Source: Thermoplasmata archaeon | GTDB taxonomy: Archaea; Thermoplasmatota; Thermoplasmata; UBA10834 | DNA: 50,906 nt | NCBI GenBank assembly: GCA_020696395.1 | Contig: JAEHCN010000002.1 | Coordinates: 1 to 50,906 of the forward strand | Direction: 5' to 3' | Shown: in pieces, positions 1 through 50,316 of the stretch | How positions within the stretch are numbered: the stretch's first letter is position 1 | Layout of the letters: each line of letters starts with the position of its first letter | Made by a program: the position numbers and the translations under genes | Notes under the pieces: model-generated | Databases searched by the model: none | Seen by the model: only the letters and a program-made list of their open reading frames with translations | Told to the model about the DNA's origin: nothing

Positions 1-1
1 G

Positions 2-262
2 AATGATCTCTGGCTTTGGGGAGTGATCGCCATTGGAGTAGGGGTGATATTTGTTGCCATAGCCATAGCCAACAAAGAGCCTGCAGAATTCCGCACGCTG
101 AGAACTCGCATTGAGAGGGATTTCTACAGGAAATGCCCCAGCTGTGGCTCATGGAATACGAAATTCGTGCCGACCTGCTCTACATGTGGTGTGATGCTTC
201 CAACACTTTCCGAGTTCCAGAAGACCGAAGTAGCCCCGAGAGATTTCAAAGAGGGACCGTAA
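2..262 (+). CDS. small membrane-anchored zinc-ribbon protein (5' end may lie outside the window)
   Basis: Frame is open from nt 2, with a GTG at 23. A hydrophobic helix (LWLWGVIAIGVGVIFVAIAIA) is followed by CPSC-x10-CSTC. TAA stop at 260-262. Confidence 0.5.
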   Translation, partial: NDLWLWGVIAIGVGVIFVAIAIANKEPAEFRTLRTRIERDFYRKCPSCGSWNTKFVPTCSTCGVMLPTLSEFQKTEVAPRDFKEGP

Positions 263-283
263 GACCGACACTCTGAGGCGAGT

Positions 284-346
284 GAAAAGGCCATAGGGAA
301 AAATGAAAGGGGTTTGCCGAGCCCCCTGATTGACCCCGTCTTTTCG
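284..346 (+). repeat. intergenic repeat element, copy A (15-nt core GAAAAGGCCATAGGG plus ~45 nt homologous to copy B)
   Basis: The core matches the copies at 2146-2165, 2952-2971 and 50297-50316. Downstream, GGTTTGCCGAG...CCCC..CTTTTCG aligns with the reverse complement of 2096-2131. Confidence 0.7.
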
Positions 347-636
347 GGTGACTGGCCTACCGTGACGGACTATCAACGCTGATAATACGTCAAGCATAGC
401 CAGCTAGTTCATTTCGTGGAGGCAATTTCGGGGAATTAGTGCTCGGGGACTGACGAAACGCCTCCAATACCTCAGTTCCAGCATTGTCCTCGCTCTTTCT
501 GATTCTGTCGCCGCTCGGAAGGGCCGCCAATACGGCAAGGATTGAGTAGGATTCTAATAGCACGAATGTAATGACGATTTCGCTGAGGGTCAGGCAGGCA
601 TTTGTTCCTGTCTAGCTCCTCTAGGGGGAAGAAAGG

Positions 637-1803
637 GTGAAAAGGCGTTTCGTCGTTTGCTGCTTCAGTATCATAGCGGCAACTCTTGTGGTTGTGCCCG
701 GAGCGTGTCTCGCGAATCACGCGGGAGGGAAGTGGGCCGTAACAGAATCGTGGACCGTCGCGCTGTACATAAGCGGAGACAACAGCCTCGAACGGTTCTG
801 GGATGACAGCAGCCTCCCCGGATTGTTGAAGTTGCCGGCGAATGACAGGCTCAAGATTGTGGCCTATGTCGATCGGCTGAGCACGGAGGGAACCGAAGTC
901 GTCGAGGTGTCCGGTGACACGTGTGAACTGATCGCAACCCTTCCGGAGATGGACTTCGGAGATGGGAACACGTTCCAGTGGTTCCTGACCGAGATTGCAG
1001 AAGAATATCCATCGGACAAGCTCGCAGTGGTTGCATGGGACCATGGCTACGCATGGAGGTACATCAGTGACGACGTCACCTCTGGGAGCAGGATCACAAT
1101 GCCCGCGCTTGAGGCAGCAATAGTGGATTCAGGAGTCTACATCGACGTGCTAGCTTTCGATGCCTGCAACATGGCCTCGGTGGAGGTGGTCTACCAGATC
1201 TCTCTGACCGAATCTGTGGGAATAGTCGTCGGATCTGAGGAGTCGGTCCCGACAACCGGTTTTCCATATGATTTGATGCTGATGCCCACAGCTATCGACC
1301 CTTCGAGGTCACCTGTCCAGCTCGCGAGCGATATGGTTGCTGGATTCGAGGCGTTTTATGCGCCTCAGACTTGGGCCTCCACGGTGGCGTTGTCTGCGGT
1401 GAGCGTCCCATCGGTGGCAGCCCATGCCAAGACTATCTCTACTTGGTCAAGCTCGATGGTTTCGTGCCTGTCCATGTACGCGAGCAACTACAAGCAGGCT
1501 GTGAGTGAGACCTACTATGCCTGGGCCACGCACTATCATGTGGACATAGCGGACTTCGGGGACACGCTTCTAGCTGACGCCTCCATCACGGACGAGGAAC
1601 TCAGGGCCTCGACGGCGGCGATGGTGGACGCGATGGACGAATCTGTGATTGCCTCCTGGGGAGGACGGGCCGCGGAGGACAGCAGAGGGATGACTCTCTG
1701 GTGGGCCAACGGCGGCGACTGGAAGTCCTATTCGGATGCATATGCGGATGTCGCGTTCGCTACCGATATGGGATGGTGGACGCTGCTTGATGGATACAAC
1801 TAG
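637..1803 (+). CDS. clostripain-like cysteine peptidase (peptidase C11 family), secreted or membrane-anchored
   Basis: 388-aa ORF with GTG start and an N-terminal hydrophobic segment (FVVCCFSIIAATLVVVPGA). His/Cys dyad contexts are typical of C11 (VVAWDHGYAW and VLAFDACNMA). TAG stop. Confidence 0.75.
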   Translation: MKRRFVVCCFSIIAATLVVVPGACLANHAGGKWAVTESWTVALYISGDNSLERFWDDSSLPGLLKLPANDRLKIVAYVDRLSTEGTEVVEVSGDTCELIATLPEMDFGDGNTFQWFLTEIAEEYPSDKLAVVAWDHGYAWRYISDDVTSGSRITMPALEAAIVDSGVYIDVLAFDACNMASVEVVYQISLTESVGIVVGSEESVPTTGFPYDLMLMPTAIDPSRSPVQLASDMVAGFEAFYAPQTWASTVALSAVSVPSVAAHAKTISTWSSSMVSCLSMYASNYKQAVSETYYAWATHYHVDIADFGDTLLADASITDEELRASTAAMVDAMDESVIASWGGRAAEDSRGMTLWWANGGDWKSYSDAYADVAFATDMGWWTLLDGYN

Positions 1804-1992
1804 GAGATCAGCGCGGCGAATTTCTCTGAAGCAGTCCGAGACATAGGTACCACAGCCGGGCTTGTGACCGACAAGCTCAGCCAGTCACTGCATGTTCGGA
1901 TGGCCTTGTCCGTCGAGAGCGCGTCCGTCATGCTCGGACACTCAAACGCCATGGCCACCGAGAGATACTATCCGAGAAGACGACATTCCTAG
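1804..1992 (+). pseudogene. tyrosine recombinase (integrase) C-terminal remnant, no start codon
   Basis: 62-codon open frame beginning directly after the C11 stop, in the same frame: ...AGLVTDKLSQSLHVRMALSVESASVMLGHSNAMATERYY.... The LGHS..(M)T.RY catalytic-Tyr box is typical of phage-type integrases. The H-to-LGH spacing is about 10 residues shorter than in XerA-type enzymes, consistent with decay. Confidence 0.6.
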
Positions 1993-2002
1993 CTACGCTT
2001 AG

Positions 2003-2047
2003 TGGTGGACCGAAGGGGATTTGAACCCCTGACCTCGACTGGCTCGG
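2003..2047 (-). other. tRNA 3'-half fragment (variable loop, T-arm, acceptor 3' strand, encoded CCA); att-like remnant
   Basis: Minus strand reads ...AGTCG AGGTC AGGGG TTCAAAT CCCCT TCGGTCC A CCA. No complementary 5' acceptor strand (GGACCGA or GU variants), D-arm or anticodon arm lies within 160 nt upstream. Confidence 0.65.
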
Positions 2048-2095
2048 CTGAAAAAGGTACATGAACCTTCCAGAAAGGCATCTCGGGAAGGGTAA

Positions 2096-2165
2096 CGAAA
2101 AGGAGGGGTTAATATAGCCCCTCGCCAAACCTCTTCTTTCTTCTCTCCGCCCCTATGGCCTTTTC
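2096..2165 (-). repeat. intergenic repeat element, copy B (20-nt core plus ~50-nt extension homologous to copy A)
   Basis: Plus strand 2146-2165 is TCCGCCCCTATGGCCTTTTC. The minus strand continues with a purine-rich spacer, GGTTTGGCGAG, a GAGGGG/CCCCTC hairpin and CTTTTCG. Confidence 0.7.
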
Positions 2166-2257
2166 GTGCGCTGAATGTGGTACGCAAGTTCTTAGTACGA
2201 ATTCACCCATCCAAACAGGGTGAGTTCGGAACCCTGAGAGGGGAGGTATGGTTGCAG

Positions 2258-2914
2258 ATGACCGGTATGGCGAAGACTCCGGAACTGCGGTCTCGAATTG
2301 GCGCATACAAGGTCGCAATCGTTCTGCTAGTGGCGACCATCATCGTACTGTCAGTTGCTCTCTACTCTGGCTGGTACGAGTCAGACCATGGTGACGGTAC
2401 GACCGATGGAGAGTCTCCTGCTAGACCTTCTCCGGACTCGTTCATCCTGAACGGAACCTCGCTGACGATTACCCCAAACAGTATCATGTGGATTAACACG
2501 AATGAGTCAGATCGAGAAGGCCTTGTCGGATGGGATTGGCATACGCTCCAAGTAGCGGTGGCCACTAATGATAGCTGGGTTGGATGGGCGCTCTATCATG
2601 CAGAGGAGACGCTGTCTCTGGGAACTCCTTCAGTGGCGGATCTTGGAGAAGGCGGGGTCATGGAGGGAAGTGTCCTGAACCTGTCGTTCTCGTTGGTCGT
2701 AGCTGACATCACCGGGAATGGATACTTCGATTTTGGGGACTACTTCATTGCATACACCGAGAACGATTCGCTGCTCGTCCCTGGAACTGAGTGGTTCATC
2801 CACCTCGCCAGTAATCTCGGTTCCGTCTATATGTCCTGGACTTTCAGCATATCCATATCTGAAGATGGGTATGAGGTGCTGGATATTACCCGATACGACT
2901 TTGCACCGTTTTGA
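2258..2914 (+). CDS. hypothetical membrane-anchored extracytoplasmic protein
   Basis: ORF is open from 2177. ATG at 2258 is preceded by GGAGG at 2242-2246. One N-terminal TM helix (VAIVLLVATIIVLSVALYSGW) and no recognisable domain. Flanked by direct copies B and C of the 20-nt motif. Confidence 0.55.
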   Translation: MTGMAKTPELRSRIGAYKVAIVLLVATIIVLSVALYSGWYESDHGDGTTDGESPARPSPDSFILNGTSLTITPNSIMWINTNESDREGLVGWDWHTLQVAVATNDSWVGWALYHAEETLSLGTPSVADLGEGGVMEGSVLNLSFSLVVADITGNGYFDFGDYFIAYTENDSLLVPGTEWFIHLASNLGSVYMSWTFSISISEDGYEVLDITRYDFAPF

Positions 2915-2951
2915 GCAATGGGAGAGCATGAGAATAGGGATGATTCGTCGT

Positions 2952-2971
2952 TCCGCCCCTATGGCCTTTTC
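2952..2971 (-). repeat. intergenic repeat motif, copy C (20-nt core only)
   Basis: Plus strand TCCGCCCCTATGGCCTTTTC is identical to 2146-2165 and lies 38 nt downstream of the 2914 stop. Confidence 0.7.
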
Positions 2972-50296: not shown

Positions 50297-50316
50297 GAAA
50301 AGGCCATAGTGGCGGA
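50297..50316 (+). repeat. intergenic repeat motif, copy D (GAAAAGGCCATAGTGGCGGA)
   Basis: 19/20 identity to the reverse complement of 2146-2165 and 2952-2971. Confidence 0.65.

Follow-up and report, generated by a model that had tools for sequence, protein, structure and literature searches.

Integrons are the textbook bacterial device for stockpiling and shuffling accessory genes. Their attC sites are imperfect inverted repeats (R''-L''...L'-R') of 57–141 nt that are used as folded single strands, with the structure conserved and the sequence variable. Clusters of attC sites without an integrase (CALINs) have been reported in archaeal metagenome-assembled genomes (MAGs), and the only such arrays so far reported in archaea are canonical ones with attC sites of bacterial type (PMC9668308). 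Here we consider a 20-nt sequence, GAAAAGGCCATAGGGGCGGA (the motif), four copies of which, A to D, had been pointed out in an earlier note on 50.9 kb of a Thermoplasmata archaeon (assembly GCA_020696395.1, contig JAEHCN010000002.1, positions 1 to 50,906; this whole stretch is the window). It is best explained as marking the boundaries of the gene cassettes that a clade of sediment Thermoplasmata carries in arrays. To the narrower proposal, that it is a polar recombination site at cassette boundaries and so a functional analogue of integron attC/attI, though unstructured and asymmetric, we give about an even chance.

The copies in the window, together with the cassette that two of them enclose, are:

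284–303, + strand: copy A, decayed, 16 of 20 positions matching
2146–2165, − strand: copy B, exact GAAAAGGCCATAGGGGCGGA; downstream boundary of the cassette in motif orientation
2166–2951, strand not assigned: cassette body, with one gene at 2258–2914 (+) for 218 amino acids (aa) with one transmembrane segment
2952–2971, − strand: copy C, exact GAAAAGGCCATAGGGGCGGA; upstream boundary of the cassette and a direct repeat of B
50297–50316, + strand: copy D, 1 mismatch; isolated, and opposite in orientation to both neighbouring genes

The earlier note had described four intergenic copies, two of them direct repeats around a single gene, and both statements hold. No copy of GAAAAGGCCATAGGGGCGGA is expected by chance (0 in 100 shuffles of the window), and all four lie outside our own gene calls: A between the end of an open reading frame (ORF) at 262 and the start at 637 of a peptidase gene returned to below, B between a tRNA fragment and the gene starting at 2258, C between 2914 and 3061, and D between 50076 and 50468. 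Scanning the window at up to 4 mismatches gave no copy beyond these, and at up to 6 mismatches no other credible one. The 218-aa gene is reversed relative to the motif and belongs to no Pfam family. An 11-nt core, AAAGGCCATAG, is also present at 286–296 (+) within copy A, which, set against full copies such as that of L022 (L-numbers denote the tiles of the survey that follows), looks like the full motif and its following module minus 7 nt (GCGGAGG). Copy D is preceded by GTTCAAACAGGAAC, which is similar to the trailer that leads from tRNA-Leu to the first motif of L028, L079 and L108; the window itself holds no complete tRNA gene (ARAGORN) and no Rfam family.

A scan of one genome per prokaryotic species with the query GAAAAGGCCATAGNGGCGGA gave more than 113 tiles of 8 kb, of which about 90 of those listed come from at least 18 Thermoplasmata MAGs of marine, estuarine, mud and soil origin, including three chromosomes deposited as complete. 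All array statistics given here are among the matches listed, some 680 kb of archaeal tiles. These tiles hold at least 148 exact copies, at least 66 with 1 mismatch and at least 33 with 2, as against a chance expectation of about 2 at up to 4 mismatches. The earlier note had allowed that the motif might be confined to its four sites and unconserved in relatives; instead at least 18 genomes carry it, conserved to the base. It is clustered, CP070732.1 having at least 43 copies in a few islands within only 72 kb of tiles. A position matrix from 162 distinct instances gives the extended consensus yyyyyTGA-GAAAAGGCCATAGGGGCGGA-AnGnCA, beyond which flanks are unrelated from copy to copy, conservation outside the 20-mer extending for about 3–9 nt on its upstream side and about 6 nt on its downstream side. 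The conserved stretch is thus only about 23–30 nt and has no larger shared element around it. Within the core, mismatches show no preferred place, positions 19–20 alone being relaxed. Runs of 100 N flank or interrupt arrays (L006/L080, at about 167.6 and 170.4 kb of CP070732.1; L058; L096/L031; L021; L036; L038 7330–7430), which suggests assembly breaks at arrays in the ‘complete’ chromosomes, so that copy numbers there are underestimates.

About 20 listed tiles are bacterial, and their hits, which lie inside long ORFs and have the look of chance or coding matches, were set aside from the counts. In L015, L032, L076, L008, L035, L017 and L002 the 20-mer stands after GCC/CCC and is followed by what reads as a membrane-protein gene on the reverse strand; in these unrelated bacteria a conserved coding motif seems to resemble the archaeal element by chance, without being related to it. 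L027 and L029 (JAEOUG01) are labelled Candidatus Thorarchaeota FT1_004 and carry the motif with tRNA-Gly and tRNA-Ala fragments as in Thermoplasmata; they are probably mis-binned contigs rather than instances of the motif in Asgard archaea. For a viral link, IMG/VR gave 0 motif hits. In the searchable literature the motif or its complement occurs in no paper, and no description of the element was found there.

In dense tiles the motif stands at nearly every gene boundary: a 13-kb stretch of CP070732.1 has 21 copies, and a 12-kb stretch of CP070736.1 has about 20. Adjacent copies less than 3 kb apart have the same orientation in 147 of 148 pairs, whereas adjacent genes do so in 64% (p about 3e-27). 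The enclosed genes are freer: 80 are co-oriented with the motif and 37 reversed, and the reversed set between co-oriented motifs includes well-scoring genes and a three-gene operon. Spacing between motifs has a median of 534 nt (5–95%, 239–1796), and the 147 inter-motif units comprise 81 with one called gene, 16 with more and 50 with none of at least 45 aa, several of the last holding small ORFs. Stop codons of upstream genes lie 0–45 nt before the motif and those of reversed genes 12–30 nt from its 3′ end. The 117 cassette genes are typical accessory cargo, encoding double-zinc-ribbon membrane proteins (12/117), domains of unknown function, GNAT, glyoxalase, EamA and ACT proteins and AsnC-type regulators. 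Many of their products start MKCPxCG... and have a single or double zinc ribbon ahead of a transmembrane helix; examples are L087 4999→5066, L073, L037 4254 and L031 1839, and a partial ORF at 2–262 of the window is of like type. Two leaders recur after the motif, cGGGCATACG..GGTCGAGGGGAATGGCATG and GAGAAGCCCTTAAGCC..GGCGATTC. Polarity linked to replication is ruled out as the source of the uniform orientation, for array orientation flips within tens of kb on complete chromosomes.

The recombination that moves, adds or removes cassettes breaks inside or at the motif. When all genomes were compared with one another by blastn, 89 match ends fell at −10 to +4 of the motif with homology running downstream and 48 at +10 to +24 with homology on the upstream side; 74 matches hold one whole motif, 18 hold two and none more. 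Since no match spans more than two motifs, the order of cassettes is not conserved, although DNA outside the arrays keeps its synteny over kilobases. In L030 successive cassettes are each closest to a different genome, with matches bounded by the motif. One cassette is about 90–92% identical in three genomes whose syntenic core DNA is at about 72–76%, and its homology is lost at the first base before the upstream motif and after the downstream one.

The same cassette also occurs in unrelated flanks, between genomes and within one community, and close strains differ by whole cassettes. The window provides the example: a JGI contig, L117, matches 2146–2971 at 99.6% identity, from motif B across the 218-aa gene to motif C, and has unrelated DNA to either side, a GNAT-like gene at one end and at the other a cassette for a small membrane protein; homology begins exactly at 2971 and stops exactly at 2146. 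A junction of the same type is present in run X2, from the window's own study, so a single community has this cassette in two contexts. Runs X4, X5 and X6 contain the flanks at about 97–99% identity, while the depth over the cassette is zero and contigs start exactly at 2951. Joints of 2165 to 2951 seen in read layouts were discarded as repeat artefacts, their shorter side being at most 23 nt and only the roughly 20-nt motif. The collinear pairs L004/L063, L061/L078 and L025/L088, considered as clean single-cassette indels, show whole-island replacement instead. Among the roles that the earlier note had entertained, that of a recombination end is the one best supported by these findings, homology between genomes and metagenome contigs starting or stopping exactly at the motif and the repeats being nearly always direct.

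How far, then, does the comparison with integrons carry? As in integrons and CALINs, there are tandem, short, mostly single-gene and mostly co-oriented cassettes with a repeat of fixed polarity at every boundary, their order is unconserved between genomes, their cargo is accessory (GNAT, glyoxalase and many unknowns), and most arrays have no adjacent integrase. Though the arrays behave in this way, they fail the defining tests. There is no attC hairpin: the motif is about 23–30 nt, unstructured, asymmetric and conserved in sequence, without the GTT/AAC core. Arrays are many per genome and anchored at tRNA genes, and no IntI-type integrase with adjacent attI and Pc was found at an array start in the motif-bearing tiles.

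The proposed mechanism is simple. A cassette is a unit of 240–1800 nt, mostly one small accessory gene in either orientation, between directly repeated motifs, in arrays anchored just downstream of tRNA genes. The motif would have been selected as the site of directional, site-specific recombination, and would then correspond in function to integron attC/attI or to the att sites of islands formed by tandem accretion. A circular or linear cassette with one motif copy would recombine with a chromosomal copy, an event from which direct repeats follow automatically. Motif-bounded exchange, direct repeats and free gene orientation are the products of site-directed insertion and excision, and it is for this reason that a recombination site is favoured; a promoter or terminator linked to a gene could not easily give these three facts, as it should flip with its gene. 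Candidate enzymes nearby would be the tyrosine integrase of the L023 type, the small serine recombinase adjoining it, and a conserved 216-aa Xer-like recombinase.

The second of these, at L023 3691–4296 (−), has 202 aa, an N-terminus reading MKCAIYARVSK..., and a motif copy within about 2.5 kb. The third is a tyrosine recombinase consisting of the catalytic domain only (L030 1334–2846, L118 8849–10651, L120 9010–10651), at 73–94% identity over more than 120 protein clusters and in the fixed synteny thermosome ... recombinase-RFC. It is preceded by about 1 kb of gene-free, AT-rich DNA with a conserved inverted repeat (TTGCCCCTnnnAGGGGCAA), which may be a locus of Xer/dif type or a replication origin. 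As a dedicated integrase the L030 recombinase was rejected: it belongs to the conserved core, with its synteny fixed, and in two other complete genomes no motif lies beside it.

It is possible, if on the whole doubtful, that the motif serves first of all in the expression of cassette genes, as an extended promoter, an upstream element or a gene-boundary insulator, and that the shuffling is a by-product of recombination at the 23 bp that copies share. A factor peculiar to the lineage, either a paralogue of TFB/TBP or some activator, would then read it, exchange would be homologous or microhomology recombination, and polarity would be inherited because double-crossover replacement preserves it. 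In favour of this, the distance from the end of the motif to a co-oriented start codon has a sharp peak at 26–55 nt, where some half of the 89 cases fall. Elements weakly resembling a TATA box (GGCATAC, CCTTAAGCC) occur 3–12 nt past the motif and many genes have a Shine-Dalgarno-like GAGGGG before the ATG. Genes with a co-oriented motif upstream have a canonical TATA box (at least 7/8 matches) in 0% of cases and AT-rich octamers in 22%, against 33–41% for other genes and 53% for reversed cassette genes; this lack fits promoterless cassettes of the integron type equally well. About 70–80% of cassette genes are co-oriented with the motif, and the motif itself is asymmetric and evenly constrained over some 18 nt, like the promoters of the T7 class that are read by a single factor. 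It also comes after the T-rich terminators of seven tRNA species.

Several of the same observations cut the other way. With 36% of gene neighbours opposed, a signal belonging to genes should have produced many divergent or convergent motif pairs, and one in 148 was observed. For the roughly 30% of cassette genes that are reversed, the motif points into the 3′ end at 12–30 nt; some 38% of copies are without any plausible ORF of their own orientation within 130 nt; and the motif is never upstream of a tRNA gene (24 in the listed tiles). Identity of 20/20 across genera is tighter than is typical of factor-binding sites, and ordinary TTTATA boxes are used elsewhere in the same genomes. A role as general core promoter was rejected, other genes of the window having such ordinary boxes. 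Archaeal core promoters have an AT-rich TATA box about 26 nt upstream of the transcription start and, 5′ of the box, a purine-rich TFB-recognition element; the motif is not itself AT-rich, and weak TATA-like elements come after it. The earlier note's thought of a transcription-factor or processing site is kept, on the strength of the start-codon spacing, as a live rival that is not the favoured one. The two roles are not exclusive: as co-oriented cassettes are TATA-poor and start 26–55 nt past the motif, a recombination site, or its immediate 3′ flank, may also supply or pass on transcription, as Pc does in integrons.

Where the arrays begin bears on a further alternative. The archaeal tiles contain 24 tRNA genes. 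Downstream of 15 of them, at no more than 1.5 kb, there is a co-oriented motif, in nine cases at 8–136 nt; two others are followed by a copy in the opposite orientation, and no copy lies upstream of any. The anchoring tRNAs are of seven identities, with a short T-rich spacer between the tRNA end and the first motif, and the array behind tRNA-Gly has a single copy in CP070732.1 and at least eight in DATKWQ. At some array ends, the window included, there are integrases or integrase relics and tRNA 3′ fragments. Such fragments also precede about a tenth of internal copies, often deriving from another tRNA than that at the array head, and seem to travel with cassettes. The 3′ end of tRNA-Ala (GGGTTCAAATCCCACAGGGTCCACCA) with some 8 nt and the motif recurs as a unit under other tRNAs (L010; L029; L078 at about 1140–1185, behind tRNA-Pro; L087; L089; L050 2341–2365), and tRNA-Gly fragments behave alike in L016, L018 and L027.

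One might suppose from this that the motif is punctuation at the RNA level, long precursors from the tRNA side being cleaved or translationally activated at each sense-strand copy, much as in tRNA punctuation or in the processing of CRISPR repeats. In its favour, the copies of an array are all on one strand, co-oriented with the upstream tRNA and present at every gene boundary, and about 10% of copies stand behind fragments resembling a T-arm and acceptor. We nevertheless hold it to be improbable: there is no conserved secondary structure and no Rfam family, T-rich terminators stand between the tRNAs and the first copy, reversed cassettes would be antisense in such a precursor, and homology breakpoints located at the motif are left unexplained.

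That the motif is a selfish short repeat, an insertion like a MITE (miniature transposable element with inverted repeats) or a repetitive extragenic palindromic (REP) element, or else the target or end of an unidentified transposon, without host function, accords with its high copy number, its intergenic position, its clustering in variable islands and its occasional decayed copies. Terminal inverted repeats, a hairpin and conservation beyond about 30 nt are all wanting, however, as is any larger shared element of the kind that the earlier note's MITE-like end would imply. No transposase figures in the top 25 of 80 cassette Pfam families, and strict polarity and anchoring at tRNA genes are unexpected of scattered insertions. 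An identical motif where core DNA is only about 70–76% identical moreover implies purifying selection or continual exchange. We judge a selfish repeat very improbable. To the suggestion that copies are fragments of a known RNA gene, for instance the 5′ end of 5S rRNA (GGCCATAGCGG...), or a chance similarity, we attach next to no credence. Its starting point is that GGCCATAG may resemble the 5′ strand of archaeal 5S rRNA. Neither the window nor the 18 dense loci give an Rfam match at gathering score, the chance expectation is 0, and the sequences past the motif are unrelated to one another. That last point, with the Rfam result and folding no better than in shuffled sequence, also leaves the earlier note's 5′ end of a small-RNA family without support.

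There is nonetheless a good deal that weighs against a recombination site. The motif, asymmetric and unstructured, is unlike the sites of known tyrosine and serine recombinases and unlike attC. Folds of 160-nt windows around 140 copies show no excess stability (mean z −0.30; 8% below −2), nor is the motif preferentially paired in them; between the motif halves there is no dyad symmetry (4/11 and 1/9 matches), and there is no tolerant centre resembling a spacer. The start-codon spacing and the seven tRNA species upstream fit an expression signal as easily. In searches by regular expression and tblastn, made in motif-bearing tiles only, no recombinase was consistently tied to the arrays, the only integrases in that screen being those of L023 and L030. 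No contig across a precise empty site and no excised circle was recovered, and the junction of motif C with the flank bearing a HAD gene had 0 hits in JGI metagenome contigs. In addition, the tiles were chosen for containing the motif, and genes were called with our own codon-usage log-likelihood caller, trained on long ORFs (longest-ORF calling being too noisy in GC-rich DNA), and not taken from curated annotation.

For those seeking a precedent outside integrons, several systems offer part of what is seen. Tandem accretion of islands by tyrosine integrases at tRNA 3′ ends likewise starts right after tRNA genes, leaves direct repeats, and has tRNA 3′ fragments, integrases and relics at its ends. 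The motif, however, is not tRNA sequence, some 85–90% of copies have no tRNA fragment, one motif serves behind seven tRNA species, and the units are single small genes rather than elements bearing an integrase. The pdif modules of Acinetobacter plasmids and the integrative mobile elements exploiting Xer (IMEX) are closer in that small modules in varied contexts are bounded by one short conserved site and are served in trans by a housekeeping recombinase, and the motif genomes have the conserved 216-aa Xer-like enzyme. Sites of pdif/dif type are nevertheless 28 bp with 11-6-11 inverted arms and alternate in orientation, where the motif is asymmetric and always direct; more generally, sites of dif, lox and res type have two inverted arms around a 2–8-bp crossover, and the motif's halves are not related in that way.

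The T7-class 23-bp promoters and the nonanucleotide promoters of yeast mitochondria share with the motif asymmetry, a length of about 20–23 nt, near-invariance, intergenic position, co-orientation and a short distance to the gene; in contrast to them the motif arrays have some 30% of genes reversed and many copies with no gene behind, and no dedicated polymerase or factor is known in the lineage. The stretch ..ATAGGG.. of the motif may also resemble T7. The DNA uptake sequences (DUS) of Neisseria, the uptake signal sequences (USS) of Pasteurellaceae, and REP elements and bacterial interspersed mosaic elements are likewise short, exact, abundant, mainly intergenic and shared by related species. 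DUS and USS, however, are genome-wide, often in inverted pairs and without local polarity, and REPs are palindromic units that form a stem-loop and go with a RAYT transposase, whereas the motif is clustered in islands, direct and not self-complementary. MITEs have terminal inverted repeats and target-site duplications, while the motif has no inverted partner and its conservation ends within a few nt. The repeats of CRISPR arrays are of 24–48 nt with non-coding spacers of 25–70 nt, as compared with a median motif spacing of 534 nt and spacers most of which bear genes.

It is a tentative suggestion, one that we would put somewhat short of even chances, that this is a cassette-capture system not described before, with many tRNA-anchored arrays and interspecies exchange at an unstructured, asymmetric, 23-nt double-strand site. 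Its machinery would be unlike integron integrases, possibly a nucleic-acid-guided or a monomeric or heteromeric enzyme, and the site might double as the expression signal of each cassette.

Around copies A and B the window has further features that need to be kept apart from the motif:

285–393, + strand: A-type module, after copy A; a purine-rich stretch, then GGGGTTTGCCGAG..., then CTGATTGACCCCG
637–1803, + strand: gene for a clostripain-family (C11) peptidase (Pfam PF03415, E 2e-37), between copies A and B
1804–1989, + strand: integrase relic of 62 codons, ending ...LGHSNAMATERYY, as read from the sequence
1989–2145, − strand: B-type module of about 155 nt, with a hairpin GAGGGG/CCCCTC and T-run, a hairpin CCCTTCC/GGAAGG, and a tRNA 3′ fragment

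The identification of the relic rests on the C-terminal tyrosine-recombinase motif only, there being no Pfam hit at a length of 62 codons. The A-type module is 87% identical to L087 6499–6621 and is related to, and aligned with, L011, L022 and L069; its opposite strand reads as a hairpin and then a T-rich run. The B-type module, in which the tRNA fragment at about 2003–2047 comprises T-arm, acceptor strand and CCA, is 82–89% identical in four other genomes (L044, L052, L072 and L084), and its first hairpin, which the earlier note had correctly placed beside copy B, has one compensatory change between genomes. In L023 this module abuts an intact tyrosine integrase of 348 aa, which is followed by the small serine recombinase. 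We take it to be, in all probability, an attachment-site region left by an integrative element that targeted a tRNA and has decayed, and not part of the motif.

Aligned copies of the B-type module (window 1989–2145 (−), L044 3853–3996, L052 2687–2825, L072 7861–7987, L084 7236–7373 and L023 2498–2624) are about 125–150 nt long, with a mean column identity of 78% and long invariant runs. The predicted fold has a long-range helix, GGUUUGGU/GCCGAGCC, around two hairpins, with only one compensatory pair. As the module is conserved above neighbouring coding DNA, it could be an att or arm region or an unrecognised RNA; around copy B an Rfam search at E up to 10 gave only tRNA-like scraps. The earlier note had seen in A and B one longer element, sharing a purine-rich spacer, GGTTTG(C/G)CGAG and CTTTTCG. 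These similarities are present, but they are weak and are parts of two different modules, each more widely conserved. In both modules the strand opposite the purine-rich spacer has a hairpin and a T-rich stretch, and would thus be terminator-like for units transcribed towards the motif.

That A and B bracket the C11 gene is true of the window sequence as deposited. Independent Logan contigs from the same samples do not support the join of window 1–370 to that gene: 371–2032 is joined there to another left flank, from position 368, that bears a deleted motif, TGAGAAAATGGGGGCGGA, and window 6–385 is on a separate contig. In L114 (1–1255) and L115 (1–820) what replaces window 1–367 is a gene for 308 aa on the opposite strand and this deleted motif. 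As the breakpoint falls inside a repeated module, the adjacency of copy A and the C11 gene is either a strain variant or a mis-join in a chimeric MAG contig. C11 paralogues lie at array edges elsewhere (L038 2683–3840, 5462–6619 and 1–225; L007 2316–3567; L020 5866–7035), and such genes flank the only places at which motif polarity switches, L038 2541 (−)/4246 (+) and, in the window, A (+)/B (−).

What is before us is an abundant clade of sediment archaea with an integron-like genome logic built on a site that is conserved in sequence, asymmetric, unstructured and anchored at tRNA genes. If the motif is a true recombination target, it points to an unrecognised pairing of recombinase and site and to a route of horizontal gene flow in uncultivated archaea, and any metagenome can be searched directly with the 20-mer for the accessory genes on which these archaea draw. 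Should the motif prove instead to be a promoter, its length and invariance would be unusual for an archaeal promoter element, and a transcription factor dedicated to accessory genes would be implied.

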